64,000 bases of DNA, from contig CAVONM010000013.1 in assembly GCA_963697225.1 (NCBI GenBank), positions 42,375 to 106,374 of the forward strand, in the 5' to 3' direction. The translations under genes were made by a program, and so were the position numbers. The notes beneath the pieces are model-generated. The model ran no database searches. It saw only the letters and a program-made list of their open reading frames with translations, and was not told the DNA's origin. Shown one piece after another: positions 442 to 63,200 of this stretch (position 1 is its first letter; each line of letters starts with the position of its first letter). This stretch comes from an uncultured delta proteobacterium. GTDB lineage: Bacteria; Desulfobacterota; Desulfobacteria; Desulfobacterales; Desulfosarcinaceae.

Positions 442-451
442 TGTCATCGGA

Positions 452-30918: not shown

Positions 30919-31029
30919 ATCCCATAATCGCCTGATGTGCAGACGGGCCTTGTATGGCCTGTGAGAATGGTGGAAACCCCCGCCCATCGTCCCCACCACC
31001 AGACACCCAAATTTTCTAAAGGAGAACAT

Positions 31030-31545
31030 ATGGACATCATCGATGCATTGGTCGGTCACCACCAGGAACTCAGAAAACTCTACCAGGCGTCGGAAAGCGA
31101 TGCGGGCCGGTTCGCCGAATTTGTGCGTCACCTCGTGGTTCACCACACCATGGAGGAGAAGTACTTTTACGATTTGCTCCAGAAGGTCGCCGATGCCCGC
31201 CACGATTCCCTTGAAGCGGTCAACGAGCACCATATCATTGAATTGATCATCAAGGATGCCGAAGGATTTCCTAAAGATCACGAAGGCTTTCCCATCAAGG
31301 TGGAAGGCCTTGGCGAATACACCTCCCACCACCTGGACGAGGAGGAGGCGGAAATCTTTCCCATGGCGCGCGCCCGTTTCAGCCCCGAGGACCTGATGAT
31401 CCTGGGAAAGCTATTCCTCGAGGCCAAACAAAAAATGCTTGCCATTGAATTACCGGAGGTGCCTGCGCAGATCAATCAACGGGCTGCTGGCTCGAAACAG
31501 GTTCAGGCCAGCTCGCAAGGGCTTGGCATCGGCAGCTTGAAATAA
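31030..31545 (+). CDS. Hemerythrin-like (HHE cation-binding) protein with a C-terminal encapsulin targeting peptide: predicted encapsulin cargo
   Basis: Multiple H..E/HH pairs (VGHHQELR, LVVHHTMEEKY, EHHIIELI, SHHLDEEEAE). The C-terminus ...SSQGLGIGSLK matches the family-1 encapsulin cargo-loading peptide consensus (SLGIGSLK/R-like). Lies 46 nt upstream of the shell gene. Confidence 0.8.
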   Translation: MDIIDALVGHHQELRKLYQASESDAGRFAEFVRHLVVHHTMEEKYFYDLLQKVADARHDSLEAVNEHHIIELIIKDAEGFPKDHEGFPIKVEGLGEYTSHHLDEEEAEIFPMARARFSPEDLMILGKLFLEAKQKMLAIELPEVPAQINQRAAGSKQVQASSQGLGIGSLK

Positions 31546-42012: not shown

Positions 42013-42800
42013 TTATTGGTGAAAAGTTAAACAAATATTAAACTTCAGATGCCATTTGTCAATGGTGATCGATTGAACTGAGATGGCGAGCGCATTCCCC
42101 GCCGCTTGTCGAAGCGAAGTAGAGATTCCGCTCATCTTGTGGATATAGTTGGCAGATGAGACGTAGGGTTTGGTTGCCACCATGCCGCCATCGGCGAACT
42201 GGCTCATTCCTCGGGTGTTAACGATCTCCACCCACTGAACGGCATCGATATAGACGCCCAGATACCAGTTGTCGACTTCATTTGGGTGGACACCTGCCAA
42301 GAGGGCGAAATTGCCGGTGATCATCAATCGATAGATGTGCTGGGCGACATCGCTGCGGGACGTTAAAAAATGCTCCGCGTCAACGACGGTCGATGGAACG
42401 GTCAGGCGTGATGCGAGGTCTGCGGGCTCGATGTCGAGGCGGTATTCGCCCGGTTGCATGTCTTCAAAGCGATCCACCTGCTGCTCCTTGATCAATCGGG
42501 CCAGATTGCGCTTAAAGGATCGTTCATTGTGTGGGTCATCCAGGCGAAGGTACACCAAACGGTGTCCCTGGCGTGAGAGGGCCGCGCCGAAATGGCGCAT
42601 GGCGCTGAAAAACACTGAATGGGGTGCTTAACGGAGTCCGTCTCCTGGCGCACTTCCATGAGCGTGTAAATGGTGTCTTTGCGAACCTTCTCGAACCAGC
42701 TGTGTTGCGCGTTGAGTTGGTTGCCGGGGATCAATCGAAGGGTTACGCTTCTCTTCATCAGTGTTCCTCCCCAAATGTTTGGCGGCCATGTGGGGTTCAA
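42013..42800 (-). pseudogene. Decayed cryptochrome/photolyase-related (COG3046-type) gene with an internal deletion and a frameshift
   Basis: One frame encodes an N-terminal-like MKRSVTLRLIPGNQL... Another frame gives FFSAMRHFGAALSRQGHRLVY... joined directly to the C-terminal signature RLMITGNFALLAGV...WVEIVNTRGMSQFADGGMVATKPYVSSANYIHKMSG. About 250 aa of the roughly 500-aa family length are present. Confidence 0.45.
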
Positions 42801-49104: not shown

Positions 49105-50106
49105 ATGACCTCTCGAGCCACCCTCGTGCTTGCCAACCACCGCCCGGAAACGATTCCAGCGGCGCAGCAGCTGATGGTCCGCCACGATAGGGTGATTCTC
49201 GAAGAACCGCCCGACCCTCAGTTCCTGTCCATGCTCAACGGGCAGGTGCCCATCGATGCCTACCTCGAGACCCAGGACCTGGAGTATCCTGAATTCAGCC
49301 GCCGCATGGCCGACGTCCTGCGCGAATGCCATCGGGCCGGCACCCGGCTATACCAGATCGAGCCCTTTATCGACCATCTGCTGTCCATTCACGAACGGTT
49401 TGCCGGCGGGGACGGTCCGTCGAACCTGCCGACCGGCACGGCCCTGCACCGGGTCTACCTGGCCGAACGGGAAGCCACCGCCGCATTGATCGACTTTTAC
49501 ACCGTGTCGACCAGCGGACCGTTGGCAGCTACCATCGAGGCGGTCAAGCGGTTCGCCCGCAGCGATGCTCAGCGTTTCGCATTGCGTGACCGGATGCGGG
49601 CAGCGGCCATGGCCGACGTCATCGCGGCCCCCGGCCGCACCTATATCGAGGCCGGGCTGATCCACTTTCCCCTGTGGCACGAGCTCAGGCGGCGGCTGCC
49701 GACAGGCTACCCCCTTCGCGTGCATTTTCTCATGGCCGATGCCGTGCGATCCATGGGCTATCGCAGTCACCTGTATGGCCCCGGAGACCTGCTGACCCTG
49801 CACTACCGTTTTCACCCGCAGCGTCGATTTCAAGGGGAAGATCTTCTCGCGGCGCGTGCGCTGATCTACAGCAAACTGATCGCCAAGGACGAGATTATCG
49901 ACGCCGACGAACCTTATCCGCACACCCGTGATGAATTGGAGGTGGGTGCCGTGACAGCCCGGCTCACCTTGACCGACTGTCGCCGCCTGTACCCGCCGAT
50001 CCGAGGGGCGGCCACCACTACAGCCCGTGAGATGGTGCGGCACTATCTGGGCTTTTTCGAGGAAACAGACGAGCCATCCATGAACACAGGGAAAATACCG
50101 CGATGA
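49105..50106 (+). CDS. Hypothetical protein (333 aa), first gene of the inositol/glucosamine operon
   Basis: ORF. ATGA overlap with the HAD gene. No domain recognised. Confidence 0.45.
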   Translation: MTSRATLVLANHRPETIPAAQQLMVRHDRVILEEPPDPQFLSMLNGQVPIDAYLETQDLEYPEFSRRMADVLRECHRAGTRLYQIEPFIDHLLSIHERFAGGDGPSNLPTGTALHRVYLAEREATAALIDFYTVSTSGPLAATIEAVKRFARSDAQRFALRDRMRAAAMADVIAAPGRTYIEAGLIHFPLWHELRRRLPTGYPLRVHFLMADAVRSMGYRSHLYGPGDLLTLHYRFHPQRRFQGEDLLAARALIYSKLIAKDEIIDADEPYPHTRDELEVGAVTARLTLTDCRRLYPPIRGAATTTAREMVRHYLGFFEETDEPSMNTGKIPR

Positions 50107-50756
50107 TCAAAGCGATGCTATTCGATTTCGGGCTGGTTATCTCGACCCCGCGTTCGACGGACTGCTTTCGCGCATACGAACGGGATCTGGGGATCGCCGA
50201 GGGCAGCATCAACCCAATCATGTTCGACGGCCCGGCCTGGCAGGACGCCCTGATCGGTCGGTTGACCATGCAGGCCTACTGGCGTGCCATCGGCCCGTCG
50301 CTGGGCCTGACCAGGCAACGGCAGATCGACGCCTTCCGCTGTCGCTACTACCATGACGAATCCGTCAACCCAGACGTCCTGCGCCTGATTCGGCGGCTCC
50401 ACGGCACTTACTACTTGGCGGTGCTTTCCAATCATCCGCCGGGCCTGGATCAATGGCTGAGCGACTGGGGCATTCGGGATCTTTTCGACGTGATTTACTG
50501 TTCCGGTGACGAGGGCCGGGTCAAACCCGATCCAGCGGTGTACCAAGCCACCCTCGACCGCCTGGGGGTACGGCCGGCCGAAGCCGTATTTATCGACGAT
50601 ACCGCGGGGCACGTGACGGCCGCGCAAGCCTTGGGCATTCACGGGATTGTCTTCAGTGATGCCCACCGTCTCGAAAGGGATCTGGATACCCTTTTGGGTG
50701 AGGACCAGTCAGCTCATCTGCCACCGCGCACCATCGAGACCCCGTATGAAGGTTAA
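50103..50756 (+). CDS. HAD-superfamily hydrolase (beta-phosphoglucomutase/phosphatase-like)
   Basis: MLFDFGLV (motif I DxG variant) and FIDDTAGHV (motif IV). Confidence 0.7.
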   Translation: MIKAMLFDFGLVISTPRSTDCFRAYERDLGIAEGSINPIMFDGPAWQDALIGRLTMQAYWRAIGPSLGLTRQRQIDAFRCRYYHDESVNPDVLRLIRRLHGTYYLAVLSNHPPGLDQWLSDWGIRDLFDVIYCSGDEGRVKPDPAVYQATLDRLGVRPAEAVFIDDTAGHVTAAQALGIHGIVFSDAHRLERDLDTLLGEDQSAHLPPRTIETPYEG

Positions 50757-50760
50757 ACCC

Positions 50761-51483
50761 ATGACGCATCGGAAGACCGCGAAAAGCCTGCTTGGAGCCC
50801 TCCTCCTGGAAGGCGGTGGTGAGTTCGGTGGCAGGATGGCGGACCCCGACCGCGAAGCCCTGTCTGCTGCAGGTGGTCCAAGCGCAAGGGTCGCCATCAT
50901 CCCGGCCGCAGCTGCACCGGACCACAATGACGAACGGGCCGGACAGAACGCGGTGCGCTGGTTTCGACATTTAGGCGCCTTGCAGGTCGAAAGCCTGCCC
51001 CTGGTCGACCGGGTCTCAGCCAATGACCCCGCCATTGCCGACCGCCTGCTCAAGGCCCGACTGATCTACCTGCTGGGCGGGTTTCCCGCTCACCTGGCCC
51101 TCAGCCTTCAGGGCAGCCGCAGCTGGCAGGCCGTGCTGCAGGCTTATAAATCCGGCGCAGTGATTGCCGGCAGCAGTGCCGGAGCCATGGTGCTCTGCAG
51201 CGATTATTACGACCCGGCGGGCCACGCGGTCGCCCCCGGCCTCGGACTTCTTTCCCGCACCTGTGTCATTCCCCATCACGAGACCGTTGGCTGGCGCTGG
51301 GCGCCCGTTTTACAAAAAGCGCTGCCGGACGATGTGCTGTTGGGAATCGATGAAGAAACCGGTGCCCTGAACCTGCCCGCGCAAGACCACTGGCGAGTCT
51401 ACGGCAAAGGGCGGGTAACGCTTTACCGCAAAAACCGGGTGACAGTTTTTGGCCCCGGCCAGACATTCCGTTTGGATGGTTGA
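50761..51483 (+). CDS. Peptidase S51-family protein (cyanophycinase / dipeptidase E-like)
   Basis: IYLLGGFP and AVIAGSSAGAMVL (Ser nucleophile elbow) motifs. Confidence 0.6.
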   Translation: MTHRKTAKSLLGALLLEGGGEFGGRMADPDREALSAAGGPSARVAIIPAAAAPDHNDERAGQNAVRWFRHLGALQVESLPLVDRVSANDPAIADRLLKARLIYLLGGFPAHLALSLQGSRSWQAVLQAYKSGAVIAGSSAGAMVLCSDYYDPAGHAVAPGLGLLSRTCVIPHHETVGWRWAPVLQKALPDDVLLGIDEETGALNLPAQDHWRVYGKGRVTLYRKNRVTVFGPGQTFRLDG

Positions 51484-51699
51484 GGCAACCGCCACGCCAA
51501 TGTGGGAAAACCGGTCACACCGCCTTGAGCGGAATTGCTCAGGACAGTCGAGATCGGGTCGGCTTTTGACTTGCATTCCGAAATCCTCTATACTCATTTG
51601 AATTCTATCCGGACTCAGCGGTATGGTCTTGCCATCCGATGACCTATCGGATCCGGCCATGGCGATTACTCTGAAGCGCTCCCACTGCCCTGTTCAATC

Positions 51700-52965
51700 A
51701 TGAAAGGCCCCATGGCAAATCCTCATGGAAAAATAGTTCTCATGGGTTCCGGTGAGCTGACGGCCACCATGGTGGAGGTGCACAAGGGCCTTTTGCAGCA
51801 GTTGCCGGGAACACCCCGGGCCGTATTTCTGGACACCCCGGCCGGTTTTCAACTCAACGTGGACCAGATATCGGCCCGGGCGGCCGACTATTTTCGGACC
51901 CGTGTCCGCCACCCGCTGACCGTGGCCTCGTTCAAGTCTAACACGCCCACCAGCGACTATGACGACCTTCAGGCAAACCGCGTGTTGCGCCAGGCCGACT
52001 TTGTTCTCATCGGGCCGGGCAGCCCGACCTATGCCTTGCGGCAATGGCAGCAATCGCCCGTACCCGATCTGCTCGCTGACTGCGTAATCACGGGTGGATG
52101 CCTGGTCGCTGCCAGCGCCGCCGCCCTGACCATGGGCCGCTTCACCCTGCCGGTATACGAAATCTACAAGGTCGGGCAGGATCCGCACTGGATTGACGGC
52201 CTGGACCTGTTGGGCCGCTTCGGCCTGAACCTGGTGGTGGTGCCCCACTGGAACAACGCCGAAGGCGGCAACCACGACACGCGTTTCTGCTTTATGGGCG
52301 CCACGCGGTTCGATGCCATGGCGGACATGCTGCCGCACCGACTACCCATACTGGGCCTGGACGAACATACCGCCTGCATCCTGGACCTGGCCACCGATCA
52401 GGCCGAGGTCAAGGGCATCGGCGGCATCACCGTGCGAACCCCCGACGGCGCGATGACGGTCAAGAGCGGTGACCGTTTTGCCCTGTCGGTGTTGCGGGAA
52501 GGGTCGATCACACCCAATCGGATCGTTGAACCACCCGAATCGGAATCCGTGCCACTGCCGACGGATGCCAACCAAGCGTTCTGGCTGAGCGCGCACGACC
52601 TGGTAGCCCGCTTCGAGACAGGCCTCGATCAAGGGGACGCGCGCGCCGCGACGAACGCACTCTTGGAGTTCGACCGCATCGTCTGGTGTGCCCAACACGG
52701 GCTTGAGGATGAGGCGGTCGTTGCCCAGGCCCGCGACACATTACGCGATATGATCGTTCTTTTGGGAAACCAGATGGCCGCCTCACCCAAACTTCGGGAG
52801 GAGCGCCTGGCCCCGCTGGTGGAAGCGCTGCTGGGTCTGCGCCAGAAGCTGCGCCGGGAAGCGCAATGGGACGCGGCCGACATGCTGCGTGCCGCCCTGA
52901 GCGCCATCGGCATTCAGGTGGAAGACACCCCGGACGGCCATCGCTGGCACCTGACATCGCCATAG
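51700..52965 (+). CDS. S51/class-I-glutamine-amidotransferase-like domain fused to a C-terminal domain resembling the anticodon-binding C-terminus of cysteinyl-tRNA synthetase
   Basis: N-terminal KIVLMGSGEL...FVLIGPGSPTYAL has the S51-like fold, with the nucleophile-elbow Ser apparently replaced (TGGCLVAASAA). The C-terminal LRQKLRREAQWDAADMLRAALSAIGIQVEDTPDGHRWHL parallels the E. coli CysRS C-terminus (...[24 protein letters not shown], from memory). Confidence 0.55.
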   Translation: MKGPMANPHGKIVLMGSGELTATMVEVHKGLLQQLPGTPRAVFLDTPAGFQLNVDQISARAADYFRTRVRHPLTVASFKSNTPTSDYDDLQANRVLRQADFVLIGPGSPTYALRQWQQSPVPDLLADCVITGGCLVAASAAALTMGRFTLPVYEIYKVGQDPHWIDGLDLLGRFGLNLVVVPHWNNAEGGNHDTRFCFMGATRFDAMADMLPHRLPILGLDEHTACILDLATDQAEVKGIGGITVRTPDGAMTVKSGDRFALSVLREGSITPNRIVEPPESESVPLPTDANQAFWLSAHDLVARFETGLDQGDARAATNALLEFDRIVWCAQHGLEDEAVVAQARDTLRDMIVLLGNQMAASPKLREERLAPLVEALLGLRQKLRREAQWDAADMLRAALSAIGIQVEDTPDGHRWHLTSP

Positions 52966-53015
52966 TCGATGCAATGCCTGACAGCGGCCATCCATTCACT
53001 GAGGAATCGATAACC

Positions 53016-54668
53016 ATGAAGCAACACCCCCAGCTATCTCTGCTGTTCGTCATGCAGGCATCGCCATCCGGGCCGGCGCCGTTGGTCGCCTATCTTGACG
53101 CGATCCCCCATGTCCGAGTGGATGTTGAACCGGTTTTGCCCGAAAATCTGAGCGACTACGACGTCTTGATCACGCTGGGGACTGCGGCAGGTGCCGTCGG
53201 GCGGGAATTGGAAGATTTTGTCCATGCGGGTGGTGGTTGGCTGGTCGCAGTCGATGCATCACCCGGTCCCCTGCCGGCCCTGCTGGGCGTCGCCGTCGAG
53301 CCGCCCGGACCGGAGGCTGAATTGCGCGTGCTGTTTGAAAGGCCTGATCACCCCTTGGGCGTTCGGCTGCCGGATGCGCTCTATCTGACCGGGCGTTACC
53401 AGGTGCTGACGCCCACCGATGATGACACCGAAACCCTGCTCTATGCCGACTGGCACTATGCGCATACCCCGGTGCTCACCCAGCGCCCGGTGGGCCGGGG
53501 CCAGGTGGCCTGTACCACCCTGCAGGCCCTTGACCATCCTGTGGTGCAGCAAATTTTCTACCGCCTGCTTGTCAATCTCGCCGGCCGCCCGATCACGCCG
53601 GATCCACTAAGCGTGGGGATTTTGGGCTACGCCCCCTCCGTGGGACGGCTGCACGGCCTGGGTATCGACCACACCGCGGGGCTGGAACTGCGGGCCGTGT
53701 GCGACCTGAACCCGGCGCGCAGCGATCAGGCGCGCAAGGATTTCCCGGATATCCGGGTTCTGCCCACGGCTGACGCGCTGGCTGCGGCTGACGGAATCGA
53801 TCTGGTCATTGTGGCCACGCCCCCCAATATCCATGCCGACAATTGCCTGCAGATGATGGCGGCCGGAAAACATGTGGTTTGCGAAAAACCGCTGGCCCTG
53901 AACCGCCGGGAGACCGATGCCCTGCAGAACCTGGCCCAGCAAAACCAGGTCCATTTGAGCTGTCACCAGAACCGCCGGTGGGACCCGGATTACCTCACGA
54001 TCAAAGATAGCCTGAAACGAGGGCTCATCGGCGAGCTGTTCTACCTGGAAACCTTCGTTGGCGACTATCACCACCCCTGCGGGTACTGGCATTCGCACGC
54101 TTCCGTCTCCGGCGGCACCAGCTATGACTGGGGCGCCCACTATCTTGACTGGATCGTCAGCCTGATTCAGCGGCCGATTACGGCGGTGATCGGCACCCGC
54201 CACAAACGGGTCTGGCGGGATGTGACCAATGCCGACCAGGAACGCATTCAAATTCGCTTTGAAGGCGGCATCGAGGCCGAATTTATGCATTCCGACATCG
54301 CCGCGGCCCGCAAGCCGAAATGGTATCTGCTGGGCACTAGCGGGGCGATCACCGGCCGCTGGCAGGATGTGCATACCCACACCATCGATAGAGACCATTA
54401 CTACCGCCGCCACGATATCCCGGTTACCGAGATGACGCCGGAGATGGCCATTTCCTATCGCCGGGCCGAGGGTGAGATCATCCGCATCACCCCGGCCGTG
54501 GCCGAGCGTGAGCCCTATTGCTTCCACCGCAACCTGGCCGACCATCTCCTGCTGGGCGAACCGATCACCGCCCCTTTGGCCGATTCCGTCCAAGTGGTGG
54601 CCATTTTGGAAGCTGCTGCCCGCTCCATGCAGCAGGGAGGCACGCTGGAGGCGCTCGATGGCATCTGA
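53016..54668 (+). CDS. ThuA-like (class I GATase-like) domain fused to a Gfo/Idh/MocA-family NAD(P) oxidoreductase
   Basis: N-terminal about 230 aa are ThuA-like (YDVLITLGTAAG...GGGWLVAVDAS). The C-terminal half has a VGILGYAPSVGRLHG Rossmann motif and the EKP motif (HVVCEKPLA) of Gfo/Idh/MocA. Confidence 0.65.
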   Translation: MKQHPQLSLLFVMQASPSGPAPLVAYLDAIPHVRVDVEPVLPENLSDYDVLITLGTAAGAVGRELEDFVHAGGGWLVAVDASPGPLPALLGVAVEPPGPEAELRVLFERPDHPLGVRLPDALYLTGRYQVLTPTDDDTETLLYADWHYAHTPVLTQRPVGRGQVACTTLQALDHPVVQQIFYRLLVNLAGRPITPDPLSVGILGYAPSVGRLHGLGIDHTAGLELRAVCDLNPARSDQARKDFPDIRVLPTADALAAADGIDLVIVATPPNIHADNCLQMMAAGKHVVCEKPLALNRRETDALQNLAQQNQVHLSCHQNRRWDPDYLTIKDSLKRGLIGELFYLETFVGDYHHPCGYWHSHASVSGGTSYDWGAHYLDWIVSLIQRPITAVIGTRHKRVWRDVTNADQERIQIRFEGGIEAEFMHSDIAAARKPKWYLLGTSGAITGRWQDVHTHTIDRDHYYRRHDIPVTEMTPEMAISYRRAEGEIIRITPAVAEREPYCFHRNLADHLLLGEPITAPLADSVQVVAILEAAARSMQQGGTLEALDGI

Positions 54669-55668
54669 GATCCAATGGGGCATTCTGGGCAACGCCACCA
54701 TCGCCCGCAAATGCGTCATCGGCGCCATCCAGAAATCGCGCAACGGTTGCGTGCGGGCACTGGCCAGCCGATCGCCTGAAAAAGCGCGTGACGTGGCCAG
54801 GCAGCACGGTATTCCCAACCTGTATGGGAGCTATCAGGCGCTGCTCGACGATCCCGCGGTAACGGCGGTTTATCTTCCGCTGCCCAATCACCTGCATTGG
54901 CCCTGGACCCAAAAAGCGCTGGCGGCCGGCAAACACGTCCTGTGTGAAAAGCCAATCGCCTGCAACGCCCAGGAAGCTGAATCGATGGCCGCCGCTGCCC
55001 GCAAGGCCGACCGGCTGCTGATGGAGGCCTTCATGTATCGCTTTCATCCGCGCAGCCGGCGCATCAAGCAGATGGTCGTGCAGGACGAGATCGGCAGGCC
55101 CAGGCTCATCCGGGCGGCGTTTAGCTACCCCATGGCCGCAAAGCTCCTACAGAGCGGTGACAACGCCCGCCTTCGGCCGGAAATGGGCGGCGGTGCGTTA
55201 CTGGACGTGGGCTGTTATGGGGTCAGCGTGGCCCGCTGGTTGATGAACGCCGAACCGGTGAGCGTCCAGGCCCAGGCATCCTTTCATCCTTCCGGCGTGG
55301 ACTGGCACCTGATTGGCAGCCTCTATTTCGGCCCCCGGCGCATGGCCGTCGTCGAAGCCAGTTTTATTGCAGCCCTGCAGCAGACCTACAGCGTGGTGGG
55401 GGACCGCGGGGCCATCGAGCTGCCCCACGACGCCTTTATCCCCTGGGAGAAAGACGCCGTGTTCGTGCTGCGCGGCCTTGACGACGAGACCGGCACCCGG
55501 CAGACCATCGCCGGTGTTGACGAATATCAATTGATGGTGGAGCATTTTGCCGACGCCGTGCTGGATCTTTCACCACTGGCCTATTCACCCGAAGAGAGCA
55601 TCGCCAACATGCGGGTGTTGGACGCCCTGTCCCGGGCCGCCCGCAGCGGCCGGCGTGAGGCGATATGA
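54658..55668 (+). CDS. Gfo/Idh/MocA-family oxidoreductase (inositol/sugar dehydrogenase-like)
   Basis: WGILGNATIARK Rossmann motif and HVLCEKPIA motif. Confidence 0.8.
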   Translation: MASEIQWGILGNATIARKCVIGAIQKSRNGCVRALASRSPEKARDVARQHGIPNLYGSYQALLDDPAVTAVYLPLPNHLHWPWTQKALAAGKHVLCEKPIACNAQEAESMAAAARKADRLLMEAFMYRFHPRSRRIKQMVVQDEIGRPRLIRAAFSYPMAAKLLQSGDNARLRPEMGGGALLDVGCYGVSVARWLMNAEPVSVQAQASFHPSGVDWHLIGSLYFGPRRMAVVEASFIAALQQTYSVVGDRGAIELPHDAFIPWEKDAVFVLRGLDDETGTRQTIAGVDEYQLMVEHFADAVLDLSPLAYSPEESIANMRVLDALSRAARSGRREAI

Positions 55669-56726
55669 CCGGCGACCCAAAGTATCCGCAAGGGATGGAA
55701 ACGGAAAACGGCCCCATGCGCAGCGCAGCAGCGACCCGCCACGATGTTCGGACCGAAACCCTGGAGAGCCTGGCAAGATACTGGCAAGGTGGCGAACATA
55801 CGCTGAAATGGGCCTGCCCCTTCGTTCTGCCACAATGGCTGAGCGCCTGGTGGCCAATCGCTGACAGGGATTGGTCACCATATATCCTGTCCGTATACCA
55901 CCAAGGGCTGCTGGCTGGCATCGCCCCGCTGATGCGAAGAGACCACCAGGCCCGTCTCATCGGTGATGCCGACCTCTGCGATCATCTGGATGTCGTCGTG
56001 GTCCCGCAGCATGCCGAGAAATTTTGCCAGGCCCTGCTCGATGGTCTGGCGCGTGACGGGGTCCGAGAGCTGGAGTTGTCGCCAATTCGCCAGGATTCAT
56101 CGGTGATGACCCACCTGATACCCATGGCCGAAGAATGGGGTGTGCGGGTCAGCCATGACCACCTTGCCCAATTGTTTGCCATGCCACTGCCCGCCAGTTG
56201 GGAGTCCTATCTTCAGGGTCTGAGTGGCAAGGAGCGCCATGAGATCCGGCGAAAGATCAGACGGCTTCACCAAGCCGGCCGCGTGACCCTGCGCTGCATT
56301 GGTCATGCTGCCGAGGTGCCGGCGGCCATGGAGACCTTTTTGACCCTGTTCAAGGCCAACCGAACCGACAAGGCGGCCTTCATGACCGACAAGATGATGG
56401 CCTTTTTTCTCCGATTGGCCGCTAACCTGGCCGCATCGGATCTCTTGAAACTGTACTTTTTGGATCTGGACGGCCGGCCCGTCGCGGCAACCCTGTGCAT
56501 CGATGACCGGTCCACGGTCTACCTTTACAACAACGGCTATGATGCGGCGTACCAGTCCCTGAGCATCGGCCTGCTGAGCAAGGTGCTAACCATAAAGGCC
56601 AGCATCGGTGACGGCCGGCAGGTCTATGATTTTCTCAAGGGCTCGGAAGCATACAAAAGTAGATTGGGCGGCCAGCCGATAGATGTTTACGGTTGCTCGC
56701 TGGAATTCGGCCAAACTGGGAAATGA
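55665..56726 (+). CDS. GNAT-fold acyltransferase of the FemAB-like/CelD/BioF2-like type (Acetyltransf_6)
   Basis: The C-terminal LKLYFLDLDGRPVAATLCIDDRSTVYLYNNGYD...SIGLLSKVL...YDFLKGSEAYKSRLGGQP pattern is characteristic of this family. ATGA overlap with the upstream gene. Confidence 0.6.
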   Translation: MTGDPKYPQGMETENGPMRSAAATRHDVRTETLESLARYWQGGEHTLKWACPFVLPQWLSAWWPIADRDWSPYILSVYHQGLLAGIAPLMRRDHQARLIGDADLCDHLDVVVVPQHAEKFCQALLDGLARDGVRELELSPIRQDSSVMTHLIPMAEEWGVRVSHDHLAQLFAMPLPASWESYLQGLSGKERHEIRRKIRRLHQAGRVTLRCIGHAAEVPAAMETFLTLFKANRTDKAAFMTDKMMAFFLRLAANLAASDLLKLYFLDLDGRPVAATLCIDDRSTVYLYNNGYDAAYQSLSIGLLSKVLTIKASIGDGRQVYDFLKGSEAYKSRLGGQPIDVYGCSLEFGQTGK

Positions 56727-57963
56727 GATGTCGATGAAGCCACTGACCATCGCCATGCTCAGCATCCATTCCAGCCCTATCGGAGAGCTGGGCACCCGTG
56801 ACACCGGCGGCATGAGCGTCTACGTGCGGGAACTGGCCCGCGAAATGGGCAACATGGGGCACCAGGTGGATATTTTCACCCATGCGTGGCGCGACGATGC
56901 ATCGACGGTAGTGGTCCTGGCCACCCGTGTCCGCCTGATATCACTCAGCATCAGCCACCGCGGTCCGCATTCCAAGGCCGGTCTTTATGCCCATGCGGGC
57001 GACCATGCTGCAACCATCGAGGGCTTTCGCCGACACCAAGCGCGCACCTACGACCTGATCCACAGCCATTACTGGCTTTCGGGTCACGTGGGCCGGCTGC
57101 TCAAGGAGCGCTGGCAGCGGCCCCACGCGATTACCTTTCATACGCTGGGCGCTGCGAAGGCCGAGACCGGTGTCGGCGCTGTCGAACCCACCCTTCGGCT
57201 GGCGGTTGAAAAGGAGCTGGTATTGGCCTGTGACGGTCTGCTGGCACCCTGTGAGGGTGAAAAAACCAATTTGATGCATTATTATGGAGCAGATGCAGCC
57301 AAAATCGCCATGGTCCCCGGTGGCGTTGATGTTGACCACTTTCGGCCCATGGACAAAACCATGGCCCGGCGGCGGCTGGGAATTGACCCCCGCGTCAGCT
57401 TGCTGCTTGCCATCGGGCGGCTGACACCCCAGAAGGGACAGGACCGGATCATCGAGGCGCTGCCCCACATTGAAACCGGGAGCCGGCCGCAGTTGCTGGT
57501 GGTGGGAGGCAACGGAGACGGTGACCCTGAACGGCGACGCCTGCAGAATATTGCCGCCGCAGCGGGCGTGCAGGAACGGGTAACCTTTTGCGGCAGCGTT
57601 GCCCACCGCGACCTGCCGGTGTATTATGCGGCGGCGGATGTCGTCGTGCTGGCCTCACATTATGAAAGCTTCGGGCTGGTGGGTATAGAGGCCCTGGCAT
57701 GCGGGCGGCCGGTGGTTTCCACCCCGGTGGGTGTGATGGCCGAACTGGCCCGCCTGCAGCGACCCGGCATTATCACTGCCGAGGGGTCACCGGCCGCCTT
57801 GGCCGCAGGTATCACCATCGCCGGGGATCGGGCGCTGGACTGGCCCGACCACATCATTCGCCAGAGCGTCAGGGACTATGGCTGGACCAACGCGACTGCG
57901 GCGGCCCTGGCGGCCTACCGGGCCGCCATGCAGGTCGCCCCTGCCGTCCATGGGTGGCCATGA
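56727..57963 (+). CDS. GT4 glycosyltransferase, MshA/BshA-like (predicted UDP-GlcNAc:inositol-phosphate or similar N-acetylhexosaminyl transferase)
   Basis: N-terminal IAMLSIHSSPIGELGTRDTGGMSVYV and C-terminal EXXXXE-type ESFGLVGIEALACGRPVV motifs of GT4 retaining transferases. Organisation closely resembles MshA. Confidence 0.75.
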
Positions 57964-58069
57964 ATGCCCGGTCATTCAGCCGATGCATTGCGTCTCACAT
58001 TGATCGGTAACACACCCATCACGTTTCATCCGCCATCGTCCAACCCGGGCGGATGATGAAAGGATAACC

Positions 58070-58804
58070 ATGAAACTGATTGTTCATGACACGATTCCGG
58101 ACGCGCCGGCACGGAAGCCCTGTGACGTCCTCGTGCTCTCGGCGCATCCGGATGACGCCGAATTCGGGGCTGCCGGGACGGTCATTCGCTGGGTCGATGA
58201 GGGCCGGCGCATCGTTTATGCCATTGCCACCAATGGTGACAAAGGTACCAGCGATCGCACCCTGACCCCTGAGGTGCTGGCCGCCATTCGCCGGGACGAA
58301 CAGGCACGCGCGGCCACATCTATCGGCGTCCACGAAATCGTTTACCTGGGATACCCGGATCAGGGTCTCGAGGATACCCCCGCGCTGCGCAAGGACGTCG
58401 TTCGCCTGTTGCGGATTTTTCGCCCCCGCATACTGGTCACTTCGGATCCGTATCGGCGCTATCTTTGGCACCGGGACCATCGCATCATCGGCCAGGTGGC
58501 CATGGATGCCGTGTTTCCTTACGCCCGGGACCACATGGCCTATCCCGATCTTCTCGAAAAGGGCCTGGAACCCCACAAGGTGGCAGAGGTCTTCTTCTGG
58601 GGGACCGAAGACATCGACTACCGCTCGGATATTACCGACACATTCGAGCGTAAAATCAAAGCCCTGCGCTGCCACGCCAGCCAGATGAAAGAATTCAGGT
58701 TTTCGGACCCGGTGGAATGGTTAAAGGAGCGCTGTCGCGAGATGGCCCAAGGCTCCGATTTTGAACTGGCCGAAGGGTTTCATCGGGTGGCCCTGCCGAT
58801 GTAG
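58070..58804 (+). CDS. PIG-L/LmbE-family N-acetylglucosaminyl deacetylase (MshB/BshB-like)
   Basis: VLSAHPDDAEFGAAGT zinc-binding motif. HRDH present. Confidence 0.8.
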   Translation: MKLIVHDTIPDAPARKPCDVLVLSAHPDDAEFGAAGTVIRWVDEGRRIVYAIATNGDKGTSDRTLTPEVLAAIRRDEQARAATSIGVHEIVYLGYPDQGLEDTPALRKDVVRLLRIFRPRILVTSDPYRRYLWHRDHRIIGQVAMDAVFPYARDHMAYPDLLEKGLEPHKVAEVFFWGTEDIDYRSDITDTFERKIKALRCHASQMKEFRFSDPVEWLKERCREMAQGSDFELAEGFHRVALPM

Positions 58805-58889
58805 CCCTTTCTGGTGATTCCCATTCATACGGTCGGCATCCGCGGCTGCGGCTGCCTCTCCATTAAAACCTAAAAAAGGTGATAAACGC

Positions 58890-60254
58890 GTGTACAAACG
58901 ATCCGAAGCACCACACAACGCCAGGAACAGCCCCACCCCCGTTGCGCGGCCTGAAGGTCGCCTGGGGGTGTTGATTCCGGGTATGGGGGCAGTGGCCACC
59001 ACGTTTATCGGCGGTGTGCTGGCAATTCGCCGCGGCCTGGGCAAACCGATCGGCGCCCTGTCCCAAATGGGTACCCTGTCGATGGGCGGCGCCCCGTCCG
59101 AGGGCGACCGCCTGATCCGGGATGTGGTTCCCCTGGCCCGGATGGACGACCTCGTTTTCGGCGGCTGGGACATCTTCGATGACGACATGTATGCCGCTGC
59201 CGTCACTGCCGGGGTGCTGGCACAACCGACCCTGGATGGCATCCGATCGGACCTGCAGGCCATACGGCCAATGCCGGCAGTGTTTGACAGGCGTTATGTC
59301 AACCGGCTCGACGGACGCCACACCAAGTCGGGACGCTCCAAAATGGATCTTGCCGATCAGGTTCGTGCGGACATCCGGGCTTTCAAGGCCGCCAACGGCC
59401 TTGCACGCATGGTCATGATCTGGTGCGGCAGCACCGAAGTCTATTCCCAGCCAGGGCCGGTGCACCAATCCGTGAGCAGTTTTGAAGCGGGTCTGAAAAC
59501 CGACGATCCGGGAATCGCCCCCAGCATGATATACGCCTATGCGGCCATCCAGGAAGGTCTGCCATTTGTCAACGGCGCCCCCAATTTGACAGAGGAGATT
59601 CCCGCCCTGCAGGCCATGGCGCAGCAACACCAGGTGCCCCTGAGCGGCAAGGATTTCAAGACCGGTCAGACCATGATCAAAACCGTTCTGGCACCCGCTT
59701 TCAGGGCGCGGCTGCTGGGGGTCGCCGGCTGGTTTTCCACCAACATATTAGGCAATCGGGACGGCGAGGTGCTGGATGACCCACAGGCGCTGAAGGCCAA
59801 AGAGATCAGTAAACTGAGCGCGTTGGAGCATATCCTGCAGCCGGGATTATTCCCCGATCTTTACGCGGATCTGCATCACAGTGTCAAAATCAACTATTAC
59901 CCGCCGCGGGGTGACAACAAAGAAGGCTGGGACAATATCGATATTTTCGGCTGGCTCGGGTATCCCATGCAAATCAAGATCAATTTTCTGTGCCGCGACA
60001 GCATCCTGGCTGCCCCACTGGTATTGGATGTGGCCTTGTTTATGGATCTGGCGGCACGCGCCGGTTGGCACGGCCCGCAGGACTGGCTCTCTTTTTATTA
60101 CAAAAGCCCGATTACCCCCGCGGGCGTATCGGTAGAACACGATCTGTTTAAACAACTCGAGCGATTGACTGCCAGGCTGAACCAGGCCGCGCAGGCGGCC
60201 GTTCGAAGCAAGGCGTTTAGTGGCAACCACCAAAAAAGGAGACTTTCAACATGA
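58890..60254 (+). CDS. ino1: myo-Inositol-3-phosphate synthase (bacterial/archaeal type)
   Basis: 454 aa. N-terminal NAD-binding LGVLIPGMGAVATTFIGGV and conserved MIPS core motifs (NGAPNL, SGKDFKTGQT). Confidence 0.8.
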   Translation: MYKRSEAPHNARNSPTPVARPEGRLGVLIPGMGAVATTFIGGVLAIRRGLGKPIGALSQMGTLSMGGAPSEGDRLIRDVVPLARMDDLVFGGWDIFDDDMYAAAVTAGVLAQPTLDGIRSDLQAIRPMPAVFDRRYVNRLDGRHTKSGRSKMDLADQVRADIRAFKAANGLARMVMIWCGSTEVYSQPGPVHQSVSSFEAGLKTDDPGIAPSMIYAYAAIQEGLPFVNGAPNLTEEIPALQAMAQQHQVPLSGKDFKTGQTMIKTVLAPAFRARLLGVAGWFSTNILGNRDGEVLDDPQALKAKEISKLSALEHILQPGLFPDLYADLHHSVKINYYPPRGDNKEGWDNIDIFGWLGYPMQIKINFLCRDSILAAPLVLDVALFMDLAARAGWHGPQDWLSFYYKSPITPAGVSVEHDLFKQLERLTARLNQAAQAAVRSKAFSGNHQKRRLST

Positions 60255-60712
60255 AGCAACTGCAACCGGGAAATGCAGCACCGGCGTTCAGCGCATTGGA
60301 TCAGCACGGCGGTAGCGTCAATCTGTCCGATTTCAAGGGGCGCAGGGTATTCATCTTTTTCTACCCCAAAGCCAATACCTCCGGCTGAACGACCCAGGCC
60401 CAGGCGGTGCGGGACGCACTGCCCGATCTGACGGCTGCCGGCGTGGCCGTTATTGGCATCAGTCCGGACCCGGTCGCTCAGCAGAAAAAATTCGACGACA
60501 AGCACGGTCTGGGGTTTGCCCTGCTCAGCGACAGCGACCACCACATTGCCGACGCCTACGGCGTGTGGGGCGAAAAGAAAATGACTGGCAAGACCTATAT
60601 GGGGATCGAGCGGTCGGCGTTTTTGATCAATGAATCTGGCAACATCAGCGCCACCGGTTACAACATCAGCCCCCAGCAAACGATGCCCGCATTGAAGCAG
60701 TGGCTGGCGTGA
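60251..60712 (+). CDS. bcp: Peroxiredoxin (Bcp/PrxQ-type) with an in-frame TGA at the peroxidatic Cys position: predicted selenocysteine-containing peroxiredoxin
   Basis: Reads ...VFIFFYPKANTSG-TGA-TTQAQAVRD... The canonical Bcp motif is FYPKA.TPGCTTQAC. The TGA (60386-60388) is in frame with the ATG at 60251, which overlaps the ino1 stop as ATGA. The protein has no Cys at all. A 9-bp hairpin lies 15 nt downstream of the TGA. Confidence 0.7.
60403..60423 (+). promoter_or_regulatory. Candidate SECIS-like hairpin (GGCGGUGCG-GGA-CGCACUGCC) 15 nt downstream of the in-frame UGA
   Basis: Base pairing read from the sequence (one G-U pair). The position is appropriate for a bacterial SECIS. The apical loop is small, so the real structure may differ. 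Confidence 0.35.
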
Positions 60713-60807
60713 CGCAACGCCGACCGTGAACCGCGGTGTTCTGATGTCAATGAAATCCTTGCCCCATATCGATTTAATCGCTCAAATTTAACCGGTGGAG
60801 AAAAAAG

Positions 60808-61416
60808 ATGAACGCGCGACAGATAATGGACAGCGATGAATTCAAGCGCTGTGAGGCCTTTCACGGCCACGTGTGCGGCGGGCTGGCCATCGGCTATGTG
60901 GCGGCCAGGGCCGGGCTGGACTGGCTGCGGGAAAAGCGGGCTCTGGACGAAGAACTGGTGGCTATCGTGGAAACCGATGCCTGCTGTGTGGACGCTATCC
61001 AGGTGGTCACCGGCTGCACGTTGGGCAAAGGCAACCTCATCTTCCGGGACTACGGGAAGATGGGCTTTACCTTTTTCAACCGCCGCACCGGCCAGGGGGT
61101 GCGGTTGGCCATGAAACCGGACACCATCCGCGTCAACCATCGGCAGGTCGAACTACTCGGAAAAACGCGTGACGGCAGCATCACGGAAGCGGAAAAAGCC
61201 GAATTGGAAACATTGGGTAACCAGCGAACAGCCGAGGTGTTGGAAACCCGCGCCGGCGACCTGTTCTGCATGACACCGGTCACCGCCGGCATGCCGGACA
61301 GGGCCCGCATCGAGCCCTCAACACCCTGCGCCCGCTGTGGTGAGCCCACCATGGGGTCCAAACTGGCGTCGGTGGATGGCCACGCGGTTTGTCGGGCCTG
61401 CTTGGCCGCGGATTAA
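60808..61416 (+). CDS. FmdE-family protein with C-terminal zinc ribbon
   Basis: FHGHVCGGLAIGY signature of FmdE. C-terminal CARCGEP...CRAC. Confidence 0.7.
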   Translation: MNARQIMDSDEFKRCEAFHGHVCGGLAIGYVAARAGLDWLREKRALDEELVAIVETDACCVDAIQVVTGCTLGKGNLIFRDYGKMGFTFFNRRTGQGVRLAMKPDTIRVNHRQVELLGKTRDGSITEAEKAELETLGNQRTAEVLETRAGDLFCMTPVTAGMPDRARIEPSTPCARCGEPTMGSKLASVDGHAVCRACLAAD

Positions 61417-61457
61417 CTAATGGTGCCTCTATCGCGGGAGAATGTCGCGGCCATGGG

Positions 61458-62060
61458 TCACTTTGCCGCGGTATAGATGTCGTTCACCCGATCCCAGTTG
61501 ACGACGTTGAAGAAGGCGCCGATGTAATCCGGCCGGCGGTTCTGGTACTTCAGGTAATAGGCATGCTCCCAGACGTCGATGCCCATGACCGGTGTCTTTC
61601 CCTGGCTGATGGGATTGTCCTGGTTGGGCGTTGCCACGATCTCCAGATTGCCCTTGTCCAGCACCAGCCAGGTCCACCCGCTGCCGAAAAGGAGGGCGGC
61701 GGTATTCGAAAAGGTCTCCTTGAATTTCTCATGGCTGCCGAATCGTTTTTTGACGGCATCGGCAACCGGCCCACCGAACGTGACATCTTTTTTCAGCATC
61801 GGCCACCAGAACGAGTGGTTGGCATGCCCGCCGCCGTGATTGCGCACGGCTGTGCGGATGTCCTCGGGAACTGTATCGAGACTCTTCAAGAGCGCTTCGG
61901 CGCTTTTATCCTTAAACACCTCATGACCACTGAGGGCGCCATTCAGCTTGTCCACATAGGTCTGGTGGTGCTTCGTGTGGTGAATTTCCATGGTCCTGGC
62001 GTCGAAATAAGGTTCTAAAGCGTCATATGCGTAGGGTAGTTTTGGCAATGTATGATTCAT
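61458..62060 (-). CDS. sod: Fe/Mn superoxide dismutase
   Basis: [25 protein letters not shown]...DVWEHAYYL. 200 aa. Confidence 0.95.
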
Positions 62061-62237
62061 GGTTGGTTCTCCGGGTTGTGGTTTGCCAGCGGGAGATGAA
62101 CCGACTCACCTGTGCGCGACTAAACGCGCCGATTCCACGTGAACCGATGCTGTCCCGCTGTTGACAAACAATGGCGACGCACCTAAAATAAATCAAATCG
62201 ATAATTATTATATCAACATCAAAAAAAACTATATTAC

Positions 62238-63200
62238 ATGATTACCCATACCCAACTGGAGTACCTGGTGGCCGTGGACCGCCACGGGAGTTTCTCGGCG
62301 GCAGCCGCCCGGTGTTTTGTCACCCAGCCGACGTTGAGCATGCAGATTCAAAAACTAGAGGCGGAATTGGGTGTGACCTTGTTCGACCGAGGCCGGAAAC
62401 CGGTTGAGGCCACACCTGTCGGGAAGGCCGTCATTGACCGGGCCTACCGGACGCTGCGGGAATTCAAGGGCATCGTCGAGTTGGTCCATGATCAGCGGGA
62501 AGCCGTCTCGGGAGAGCTGCGCGTGGGCATCATTCCTACCCTGGGTGCTTATCTGCTGCCCCGGTTCATCCCGGATCTGCTCACATCCTATCCGCTGGTT
62601 CGGATGACCATTCAGGAACGGCTCACCGGTGACATTGTCGAGGGGTTGCGGCGGGATCTGCTGGATGTCGGCATTGCCGCCACGCCCTTGGAAGAAAAAG
62701 GGATTCGGGAGACGCCGTTGTTCCGTGAGCCGTTCTATGCCTTGGTCTCCGCCGGCCACCGGCTGGCAGACAAGAAGCGGCTGTCAACCGGGGACCTCGC
62801 GCCGGATGAGATGATTCTGCTGGACAGCGGCCACTGCCTGCGCAAACAGGTGTCCCGAATTTGCATGGGGACCTTTAACCAGGATGATCACCCGTCGGTC
62901 AGGCTGCGATTTGTGGGTGGCAGCCTGGAAGGCCTGATACGGATCGTGGAATCGGGGTACGGGGTCACGCTGCTTCCCGAATTGGCCGCCATGACCCTGG
63001 CAAAAGGTTCTCGGGAGCTGCTGCATCCGCTTGAAGCCCCGGTGCCCGCACGCGAGGTGAGCCTCATCACCCATGGGGAAGGCGTCAAGACCCGGCTGCT
63101 GGAGATCCTCAAACTGTCGATTCTAAAGGGTCTTCCTGCTGGGTTGAAAGATGCCGAAGGCGGTCACGCCCTGCGCGTTATCGGCGCAGGGAAGGCCTGA
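62238..63200 (+). CDS. oxyR: LysR-family regulator, OxyR-like (peroxide sensor)
   Basis: LysR HTH. LDSGHCLRKQVSRIC reproduces the OxyR redox Cys pair spacing (E. coli GHCLRDQAMGFC). Divergent from sod. Confidence 0.7.
   Translation: MITHTQLEYLVAVDRHGSFSAAAARCFVTQPTLSMQIQKLEAELGVTLFDRGRKPVEATPVGKAVIDRAYRTLREFKGIVELVHDQREAVSGELRVGIIPTLGAYLLPRFIPDLLTSYPLVRMTIQERLTGDIVEGLRRDLLDVGIAATPLEEKGIRETPLFREPFYALVSAGHRLADKKRLSTGDLAPDEMILLDSGHCLRKQVSRICMGTFNQDDHPSVRLRFVGGSLEGLIRIVESGYGVTLLPELAAMTLAKGSRELLHPLEAPVPAREVSLITHGEGVKTRLLEILKLSILKGLPAGLKDAEGGHALRVIGAGKA

Follow-up and report, generated by a model that had tools for sequence, protein, structure and literature searches.

Selenocysteine-containing peroxiredoxins

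Selenocysteine (Sec) peroxiredoxins are an established selenoprotein family. Bacterial members in PF00578 with the T-x-x-U signature occur in Syntrophobacter, Syntrophus, Anaeromyxobacter, and Geobacter metallireducens, and Desulfococcus multivorans, from the Desulfosarcina-Desulfococcus clade, carries an annotated Sec-peroxiredoxin (dmul_C20060/70) together with selA, selB, and selD. The PxxxTxxU-type motif of these proteins is defined in a review (PMC13188914), and PrxU from Eubacterium (Peptoclostridium) acidaminophilum is an experimentally shown Sec-peroxiredoxin (Sohling et al. 2001, via PMC13188914).

The gene described here, prx, adds a member to this family. It spans 60251..60712 on the plus strand (as do all features below) of the window, by which we mean the whole 64-kb stretch of DNA that was analysed. 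We hold with high confidence that it encodes one 153-residue BCP/PrxQ peroxiredoxin with a peroxidatic Sec, U46, inserted at the UGA at 60386-60388. As in other bacterial Sec-peroxiredoxins, the UGA is at the peroxidatic position of a PxxxTxxU motif, a SECIS-type hairpin follows shortly after it, and other homologues carry Cys. Nothing categorical separates it from that family; its clade belongs to the BCP/PrxQ subfamily and has neither a resolving nor any other Cys. The D. multivorans protein comes from the common Desulfosarcina-Desulfococcus clade, a likeness drawn from its annotation and not its sequence. PrxU also uses Sec in place of the peroxidatic Cys, but the window protein is from a different peroxiredoxin subfamily and is not a PrxU orthologue, scoring 53.7 bits against the PrxU model NF040737 (cut-off 270). 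Prx-SUH is likewise a selenoprotein with the peroxiredoxin fold, but its motif differs (CxxU) and its model, NF045827, scored the window protein at 21.7 bits (cut-off 298).

Reading frame, family membership, and predicted catalysis

A previous sequence-only reading of this DNA had proposed a Bcp/PrxQ frame running from the ATG at 60251 through a lone TGA at 60386-60388, and a product free of Cys with Gln in the resolving position. Translation and profile searches bear out each of these points. Translation of 60251-60715 returned a single in-frame stop at codon 46 followed by 107 sense codons to a TGA stop (60710-60712), for 153 codons including Sec46, with no Cys in the whole frame. A Shine-Dalgarno-like GGAG, read from the sequence at 60238..60241, lies 9 nt 5' of the ATG. 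The active-site motif P39-K-A-N-T43-S-G-U46 (60365..60388) aligns with PKDNTPGC of solved BCPs, so that the in-frame UGA falls at the peroxidatic Cys. Gln51 (60401..60403) takes the resolving-Cys position of atypical 2-Cys Bcp (CxxxxC), and Arg121 (60611..60613, in GIERS) is the conserved peroxiredoxin active-site Arg.

With U46 entered as Cys, the protein scored 128.9 bits (1.3e-37) against PF00578 (AhpC/TSA; cut-off 26 bits) and 172.3 bits against the Bcp equivalog NF006960 (cut-off 140 bits), and the only Pfam families that matched were of the peroxiredoxin type. The solved BCP 5enu matched at E = 8e-26, and both the PxxxTxxC motif and the active-site Arg aligned with the corresponding residues in 5enu and 5iph. 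Identity to these solved proteins settles the predicted fold as that of a BCP. Compared with E. coli-type Bcp/PrxQ (NF006960; 5enu, 5iph, 3gkk), the window protein agrees in length, in the motifs that define the fold, and in the active-site Arg, but carries Sec for the catalytic Cys and Gln51 for the resolving Cys. A resolving Cys at +5 defines the atypical 2-Cys subgroup only and not the family. Gln51 and the lack of Cys anywhere group the protein with the 1-Cys-type BCPs, and the Burkholderia-type 1-Cys BCP 5enu also has no Cys at +5.

The product is very probably a peroxide-detoxifying enzyme in which Sec replaces the catalytic Cys. Following the chemistry of the family, U46 with Thr43 and Arg121 would reduce H2O2 or organic hydroperoxides and be oxidized to a selenenic acid. 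Because there is no Cys and the resolving position holds Gln, an internal Se-S bond is impossible, so resolution of the selenenic acid, via a selenenylsulfide, would call for a thiol from outside the protein, whether thioredoxin, glutaredoxin, or a low-molecular-weight thiol. The overall cycle would then be a ping-pong mechanism on a peroxiredoxin scaffold, resembling that of Sec glutathione peroxidases (GPx), in which a single Sec passes through selenenic acid and is regenerated by an external thiol via a selenenylsulfide. The GPx themselves are a different thioredoxin-fold family with a UxxT motif (PF00255), and the window protein is not one of them.

The ino1 overlap and a candidate reductant

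The gene for inositol-3-phosphate synthase (ino1; 58890..60254; PF07994 2.6e-91, PF01658 9.2e-32) lies upstream of prx. ORF calls place the prx start codon (60251-60253) over the ino1 stop codon (60252-60254) in an ATGA overlap (60251..60254), and the same 4-nt overlap was called in relatives L001-L008. In this lineage prx would be the last cistron after ino1, with the two probably co-transcribed through the overlap. The wider cluster contains an S51 peptidase-like gene, an S51 gene fused to a Cys-tRNA-ligase anticodon-binding domain, two Gfo/Idh/MocA genes, a FemAB-like GNAT, an MshA-like GT4, a PIG-L deacetylase (MshB/BshB-like), and Ino1. This S51/GT4/PIG-L/Ino1 cluster is conserved in Desulfobacterales yet uncharacterised.

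Mpx, and AhpE with mycoredoxin-1, are mycothiol-dependent peroxidases of Actinobacteria. Their resemblance to the present case is a conceptual analogy only: there is no internal resolving thiol, and the neighbouring genes resemble those for low-molecular-weight thiol biosynthesis. The window cluster gave no evidence of mycothiol synthesis. Its genes fell below the mycothiol equivalog cut-offs for MshA, MshB, and Ino1 (TIGR03449, 271.3 vs 462.5; TIGR03445, 38.7 vs 224; TIGR03450, 26.6 vs 638) and below the bacillithiol equivalog cut-offs as well. A search of the cluster proteins for an MshC/BshC-type ligase returned none, only the CysS_C anticodon-binding domain on the S51-like protein, and the cluster thus lacks the full set of a mycothiol operon (MshA, MshB, mycothiol-type Ino1, and MshC).

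These neighbours raise the question of whether the reductant is a dedicated one, with the Sec-Bcp serving as peroxidase for a low-molecular-weight thiol made by the ino1/GT4/PIG-L/GNAT/S51-CysS_C cluster rather than depending on thioredoxin. We regard this as unlikely. It would suit an enzyme that, having no resolving Cys, needs an external thiol, and it draws on the overlap with ino1 kept in close relatives, on the combination of MshA-like, MshB/BshB-like, and Ino1 genes with a Cys-tRNA-ligase anticodon-binding-domain protein, and on a glutaredoxin-fused FAD disulfide reductase found in a homologous cluster elsewhere. Besides the missed equivalog cut-offs and the missing ligase, the adjacency itself speaks against it: the prx-ino1 arrangement is confined to relatives of 86% amino acid identity or more, and no clade member below ~80%, where the neighbours vary, shows it. 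Two homologous clusters that we examined had neither Bcp nor ino1, and the literature searched contained no report of such an inositol-type thiol in sulfate reducers or Desulfobacterota. The fuller version, in which a Cys-free Bcp with one Sec was recruited as terminal cistron of a cluster making an undescribed inositol/glucosamine thiol as its dedicated reductant, is a long shot; thiol synthesis would in that case possibly run by a Cys-tRNA-dependent route replacing MshC.

The sequence-only reading had taken the overlap to tie the selenoperoxidase to a thiol-cofactor operon. The ATGA overlap is real, but the tie does not extend beyond the close relatives, and its limitation to them means that the thiol-cofactor link is not a conserved association; we treat it as a lineage-specific lead. 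Conserved synteny was rejected as support for a thiol-operon link outside those relatives. The prx gene by itself leaves general knowledge of selenoproteins unchanged, and the unproven link to this inositol/GlcN-type cluster is its sole route to wider importance. Genes for a Mn/Fe-SOD and for an OxyR-like LysR regulator (62238-63200) also lie beside prx, and these neighbours suggest that prx is probably expressed in oxidative-stress defence.

A SECIS-type hairpin downstream of the UGA

The sequence-only reading had noted a hairpin 15 nt 3' of the UGA, at the position of a bacterial SECIS. The element occupies 60403..60423, with a 9-bp stem (60403-60411 paired with 60415-60423) and the apical loop GGA (60412-60414). 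It reads GGCGGUGCG-GGA-CGCACUGCC, its first base is the 15th nt after the UGA, and it has a conserved 13-nt core, GUGCGGGACGCAC, at 60407-60419. The bSECIS model specifies a loop of 3-9 nt, an upper stem of 4-16 bp, G within the first two loop positions, a UGA-to-loop distance of 16-37 nt, and a minimum free energy of at most -7.5 kcal/mol (PMC13188914). The hairpin is within all of these limits, with the loop GGA, 9 bp of stem, a 23-nt spacing, and -14.9 kcal/mol when folded alone. In a 29-nt context it reached -15.9 kcal/mol (z = -2.63), and 5/200 shuffled sequences were as stable. The wider 71-nt fold (60380-60450) was not significant against shuffles (z = -1.0) and is unremarkable for G+C-rich DNA, so stability by itself is weak evidence and the comparative data decide. 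Rfam scans of the whole window at gathering thresholds, and of 60300-60520 at permissive thresholds, returned no SECIS family, only chance-level matches.

Codon use within the hairpin was close to fixed in Sec forms (Val GTG in 51/54, Arg CGG in 52/53, Asp GAC in 49/52, and Ala GCA in 48/52), while codon choice varied for those residues in Cys homologues and, within the Sec genes themselves, for conserved residues elsewhere. The wobble sites are in this sense frozen only where TGA is present. The 13-nt core was exact in 41/50 Sec forms vs 0/5 Cys forms from the same clade (Fisher p = 0.0006). Across the alignment, 81.8% of stem cells were paired; shuffling gave 76.8%, with none of 500 shuffles reaching the observed value, and slid registers gave 18-50%. 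Family-wide, the hairpin position was more stable than control windows of the same genes (p = 9e-11). The core varies so little that the stem offered few instances of true covariation, with double changes in four of the nine pairs (8 cells in total). The hairpin overlies a conserved peptide, AVRDAL, and part of its conservation is consequently at the protein level. Taken together, the alignments show a SECIS-type hairpin under nucleotide-level constraint specific to the UGA-containing genes. The Cys members carry apparent "fossil" SECIS elements, consistent with reversion from Sec.

Predicted decoding of the UGA

With its loop beginning 23 nt after the UGA, the hairpin at 60403-60423 would serve as the bacterial SECIS, recruiting SelB and Sec-tRNA(Sec) so that the ribosome reads through the UGA and inserts selenium at position 46. 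Neither selA, selB, selD, nor tRNA-Sec was found in the 64-kb window, which is part of a 307-kb contig, using Pfam on ~55 ORFs and ARAGORN, which detected no tRNA of any kind there. For the genome as a whole, a Sec trait is suggested by taxonomy (Desulfosarcina-like) and by the prx gene itself.

The lack of Sec machinery in the window is what would favour recoding to something other than Sec, whether by near-cognate Trp or Cys read-through or by a local change of code, and hence a protein that contains no selenium. We consider this very improbable. The UGA falls exactly at the redox Cys column and is followed at canonical spacing by a hairpin that fits the SECIS model and has decayed in Cys forms. 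Trp in the peroxidatic position would abolish catalysis, which does not fit a gene held under purifying selection (below). A reassigned genetic code was rejected, since genuine stops in the window are more often TGA than any other codon, with TGA ending 19 of the 37 Pfam-supported ORFs.

The ~55 Pfam-annotated window ORFs included no other known selenoprotein family. A list of read-through ORFs from the window was dominated by chance in-frame TGAs, and a codon-usage filter for further selenoprotein genes returned antisense artefacts only and missed the known prx case.

Conservation of the TGA and selection on its flanks

The TGA was invariant in loci L001-L011, and ten independently assembled contigs with 90-94% nucleotide identity carried it identically. 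Among 71 relatives collected without bias from metagenomes by tblastn, codon 46 was TGA in 52 and TGC or TGT in the other 19, and never TAA or TAG. Its recurrence in the ten contigs and in the 52 more distant loci means that the TGA is neither chance nor a sequencing error. In the full-length homologues most similar to prx (64-73% identity), Cys stands precisely at the TGA column. These Cys-form orthologues (P0002-P0005 and P0014 in the Sec/Cys pair) are unbroken proteins of 152-155 aa. The clade illustrates a Sec/Cys pair clearly. The residue at +5 follows the same division. Cys was present there in 0/51 distinct Sec forms of the clade, and the position was occupied by Q, K, S, or G in 52/52 metagenome loci with TGA and by Cys in 19/19 Cys-form metagenome relatives. 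Within the clade, Sec use goes with a total lack of the resolving Cys.

Values of dN/dS were 0.09-0.36 over the 40 codons upstream of the TGA and 0.06-0.45 over the 100 codons downstream, with synonymous sites saturated in the more distant pairs. These ratios are well below 1, and both flanks are under purifying selection. More than 60 loci contained no frameshift or additional stop. This pattern bears on whether prx is a pseudogene, that is, a Bcp gene with a TGC/TGT to TGA nonsense mutation and two decaying remnants of 45 and 101 aa. One base change is enough to turn a Cys codon into TGA, and the public gene calls do contain two fragments. However, the TGA persists between lineages distant enough for synonymous sites to be saturated, selection is evident on both sides of it, the frame has stayed intact, and a different stop never appears at codon 46. 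We regard decay as effectively refuted.

The sequence-only reading had been exact in placing the TGA at the peroxidatic-Cys codon: homologues with Cys align at that column, and the only stop found there is TGA. Two of the observations that it had named as able to undo it bear on this codon. One was TGC or TGT on resequencing, against which the ten independent contigs all have TGA; the other was close relatives with a genuine stop and a separate start, and these proved to keep the TGA with selection on either side.

Gene calls and public annotation

Mechanical ORF calling splits prx into 60251-60388 (45 aa) and 60407-60712 (101 aa), the latter from a false GTG start (60407..60409) within the SECIS stem. 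The sequence-only reading had anticipated that standard callers would truncate the gene in this way, with a start at 60407, and the same division into 45 aa and 101 aa occurred in 7/7 relative loci with the whole gene (L001-L008). Records at JGI, ENA, Logan, and NCBI carry the split calls, and the gene is mis-annotated in every locus where this could be checked. Although these records and the available GTG imply two separate small proteins, cooperating or independent, that reading has next to no probability. Joined, the pieces make up a single thioredoxin-fold domain whose full length aligns with solved BCPs, neither piece would hold a redox residue, the GTG sits inside a conserved stem with no ribosome-binding site ahead of it, and Cys-form orthologues are single proteins.

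Automatic annotation routinely splits such selenoproteins in two. TGA occupies the peroxidatic-Cys codon of Bcp-like genes in 119 or more species genomes, spread over many phyla, counting those in which the Bcp-like frame remains open for at least 60 codons after the TGA (typically 100-110). Their number and phyletic range indicate that Sec-Bcp is a widespread, under-called antioxidant enzyme. The 101-aa products form a 34-member cluster, and among the members is an NCBI entry under the name "redoxin domain-containing protein".

Reading frame and probable selenocysteine codon

The peroxiredoxin gene prx (60251–60712) reads from an ATG at 60251 through a single in-frame TGA at codon 46 (60386–60388), followed by 107 further sense codons and a TGA stop at 60710–60712. 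A GGAG lies 9 nt upstream of the start codon, which forms an ATGA overlap with the stop codon of the 454-codon ORF before it. That ORF encodes inositol-3-phosphate synthase (ino1; PF07994, 2.6e-91). The translation contains no cysteine, with Gln51 at the position of the resolving Cys, five residues after the peroxidatic residue (+5). The mechanical ORF list splits the gene into a 45-aa 5′ fragment (60251–60388, +) and a 101-aa 3′ fragment with a GTG start (60407–60712, +), and the Sec-Bcp gene is mis-split identically in 7/7 contigs of relatives spanning the whole gene. At 90% identity, the 101-aa product clusters with other truncated products of this kind (34 members in all); one member is an NCBI record derived from a Desulfosarcina sp. 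MAG. The sequence-only reading had described the TGA at the Bcp peroxidatic codon, the open frame beyond it, the Cys-free product with Gln at the resolving position, the truncation by gene callers to an ORF from 60407, the overlap with the ino1 stop, and a hairpin downstream of the UGA; these factual statements were all correct, and its interpretation of the gene is supported.

In the nearest full-length database proteins (64–73% identity), a Cys aligns exactly with the TGA, and the TGA is invariant in an alignment of six gene-spanning sequences. Among unbiased relatives from metagenome contigs (tblastn-confirmed, 52–86% amino acid identity), the peroxidatic codon was TGA in 52, TGC in 14, and TGT in 5, with no TAA or TAG. 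A reassigned code is ruled out because TGA serves as an ordinary stop more often than TAA or TAG in the window, terminating 19/37 Pfam-supported ORFs. A pseudogene is excluded by purifying selection on both sides of the TGA: dN/dS against the window gene was 0.09–0.36 over the 40 codons upstream and 0.06–0.45 over the 100 codons downstream, and remained low out to pairs with saturated synonymous sites. No Sec machinery genes or tRNA occur within the 64-kb window; taxonomy and the signatures of prx itself make a Sec-decoding host very likely.

SECIS element

The hairpin downstream of the UGA is a perfect 9-bp stem, GGCGGUGCG-GGA-CGCACUGCC (60403–60423), with a folding energy of −14.9 kcal/mol alone and −15.9 kcal/mol in its 29-nt context (z = −2.63). 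The larger 71-nt fold is unremarkable for DNA of 58% G+C (z = −1.0). The hairpin fits the published bacterial SECIS model (PMC13188914) in its apical loop (3 nt, GGA; model 3–9 nt), upper stem (9 bp; model 4–16 bp), required G in the first two loop positions (GG), UGA-to-loop distance (23 nt; model 16–37 nt), and minimum free energy (−14.9 kcal/mol; model −7.5 kcal/mol or lower).

Comparative evidence for the element is stronger than the fold energy. Across 54 distinct Sec forms of the clade, the codons of the V-R-D-A core were near-fixed (GTG 51/54, CGG 52/53, GAC 49/52, GCA 48/52); the equally conserved P, K, T, and G residues just upstream had mixed codons in the same genes, and V-R-D-A itself had varied codons in CxxxxC-type Cys homologues. 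In an ungapped 50-sequence alignment, 81.8% of helix cells were paired vs a shuffle mean of 76.8%, a value reached by 0/500 shuffles, and slid registers were 18–50% paired. True compensatory changes were few because the core is invariant (G-U to A-U or C-G at pair 21–35, G-C to A-U at pair 24–32). The 13-nt core GTGCGGGACGCAC was exact in 41/50 Sec forms vs 0/5 Cys forms of the same clade (Fisher p = 0.0006). These five distinct TGC/TGT members of the one-Cys clade (L212:242–706, L213:3031–3495, L215:4001–4468, L219:139–606, L220:2001–2462) each had 1–2 substitutions in the core and weaker hairpins, so the stem is kept only with the UGA present. With the core still recognizable, they look like Sec-to-Cys revertants carrying fossil SECIS elements. 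Among the matches listed from species genomes, 118 distinct Sec-Bcp genes had a median spacing of 21 nt; the best hairpin at the SECIS position exceeded same-gene control windows in stability in 80% of them (p = 9e-11), and 103/118 had G at one or the other of the loop’s first two nucleotides.

Protein family and predicted catalysis

For profile and structure comparisons, U46 was entered as C. The protein matched AhpC/TSA (PF00578, 1.3e-37) and passed the NCBI equivalog for thioredoxin-dependent thiol peroxidase Bcp (NF006960; 172.3 bits, cut-off 140). Solved BCP/PrxQ structures aligned end to end (5enu, 8e-26; 5iph and 3gkk, ~1e-21), with the P39-xxx-T43-xx-U46 motif and active-site Arg R121 (GIERS) in register. 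Orthology to PrxU, an experimentally characterized Sec-peroxiredoxin, was ruled out (53.7 vs 270 bits), as was orthology to Prx-SUH (21.7 vs 298 bits).

The gene encodes a BCP-type active site with U as its peroxidatic residue and no further redox residue in the protein, and it carries a SECIS element. Sec would be inserted at the UGA in a SelB-dependent manner, and U46 would reduce peroxide and be converted to a selenenic acid. An external thiol would then resolve this via a selenenylsulfide, since internal Se–S and S–S bonds are both impossible in this protein. The predicted cycle is GPx-like on a Prx scaffold. A resolving Cys was found in 0/51 distinct Sec forms of the clade, and CxxxxC was present in 19/19 Cys-form metagenome relatives. 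About a third of the wider family’s Sec forms (43/118, among the matches listed from species genomes) kept Cys at +5, making the one-Sec architecture a clade trait and no general rule.

Distribution

Searching species genomes with the degenerate DNA pattern F-Y-P-K-x-x-T-x-G-TGA-T returned at least 120 stretches. Among the matches listed, 119/123 continued past the TGA in a Bcp-like frame without a stop for ≥60 codons (typically ~100–110). Their hosts included Acidobacteriota, Poribacteria, Planctomycetota, Binatia, Chloroflexota, Actinomycetota, Gemmatimonadota, Desulfobacterota, and others, one being a Desulfosarcinaceae MAG (L094) from the clade of prx itself. Bcp/PrxQ-like genes whose peroxidatic codon is TGA are very widespread. 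Sec-peroxiredoxin (PF00578, TxxU) is counted among established prokaryotic selenoproteins (PMC13188914), and a tally as early as 2006 gave 12 instances and five Cys-to-Sec events. Desulfococcus multivorans, of the Desulfosarcina-Desulfococcus clade, has an annotated ‘selenocysteine-containing peroxiredoxin’ (dmul_C20060/70) together with selA, selB, and selD. Given this spread and precedent, prx is an addition to an already known selenoprotein family.

Cultured isolates among the matches listed were Effusibacillus consociatus and Myxococcus sp. RHSTA-1-4. Three Candidatus Poribacteria MAGs (L024:~130–1150 (+), L046, L097) had two tandem Bcp domains in a single open frame that begins with a signal-peptide-like N-terminus, with a TGA at each peroxidatic codon, 453 nt apart. 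The arrangement is an apparent secreted double-selenocysteine peroxiredoxin, and the top-scoring database match (P0001, ENA, 259 aa), which joins two Cys-type Bcp domains in tandem, is its Cys counterpart.

Genomic neighborhood

Upstream, a cluster on the same strand as prx (50103–60254, +) encodes a HAD phosphatase (50103), an S51 peptidase-like protein (50647), a 421-aa S51-like protein with a Cys-tRNA-ligase anticodon-binding domain (CysS_C; 51700–52965; PF23493, 27.6 bits, cut-off 23), two Gfo/Idh/MocA oxidoreductases (52866, 54472), a FemAB-like GNAT (55665), an MshA-like GT4 (56683; 271 vs 462 bits), a BshB1-like PIG-L deacetylase (58070; 96 vs 182 bits), and Ino1 (58890). At least 8000 candidates were scored for the S51-CysS_C family, which is large and unnamed. 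Two other Desulfobacterales loci (L217:9060–15149, L218:4290–15405) share the core order S51, S51/CysS_C, GFO, GFO, GT4 at ~60% identity. L218 additionally has a PIG-L gene, a FemAB-like GNAT, and a glutaredoxin-fused FAD disulfide reductase; neither locus contains Bcp or ino1. The cluster is conserved in Desulfobacterales and uncharacterized, and its gene content is suggestive of a metabolite built on GlcN/inositol, perhaps a thiol whose synthesis uses Cys-tRNA.

The sequence-only reading tied prx to a putative thiol-cofactor operon through ino1. The ino1–prx adjacency occurs only at ≥86% amino acid identity to the prx product (L001–L008, L132, L133) and is absent from every more distant Sec-clade locus having flanks, where prx has unrelated neighbors (GT, epimerase, MFS, hydrolase, GNAT, and YgjP genes). 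Cys forms neighbored Fur and rubrerythrin, or cytochrome bd oxidase. The literature searched yielded no inositol-type thiol of sulfate reducers. Most cautiously read, prx is a general oxidative-stress peroxidase gene that, in this lineage, has come to lie at the 3′ end of the ino1 operon; a dedicated thiol partnership is a low-probability lead.

Downstream of prx is an oxidative-stress neighborhood (60808–63200) with an FmdE-like protein bearing a C-terminal DksA/TraR-type zinc finger (60808–61416), a Mn/Fe superoxide dismutase (61458–62060, −), and a divergently transcribed LysR regulator (62238–63200) that scored best against the NCBIfam OxyR model (200 bits, short of its cut-off of 329). 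Members of the L002–L007 lineage have a shorter FmdE gene and only a 26-aa remnant of the superoxide dismutase.

Elsewhere in the window, a family-1 encapsulin shell gene (31592–32410; NF041155, 236 bits) directly follows a hemerythrin-domain gene (30937–31545) whose product could be its cargo, and a rubrerythrin gene (18521–19018) adjoins an iron-dependent repressor (17522–18289). Paralogous regulators with MerR-HTH and B12-binding domains (20155–21129, −; 40610–41569, +) have a CarH-like light-sensor architecture. Near the second, a short ORF (42013–42615, −) matches only the middle of the photolyase-related DPRP profile (46–138 of 224) and is possibly a gene fragment. AMP-binding, 2Fe-2S ferredoxin, and RACo (corrinoid reductive activase) domains occur together in one of two ~1000-aa ORFs (8160–11177, −; 12456–15479, −); in the other, only a C-terminal SAM-methyltransferase domain is recognizable, after ~820 residues without assignment.
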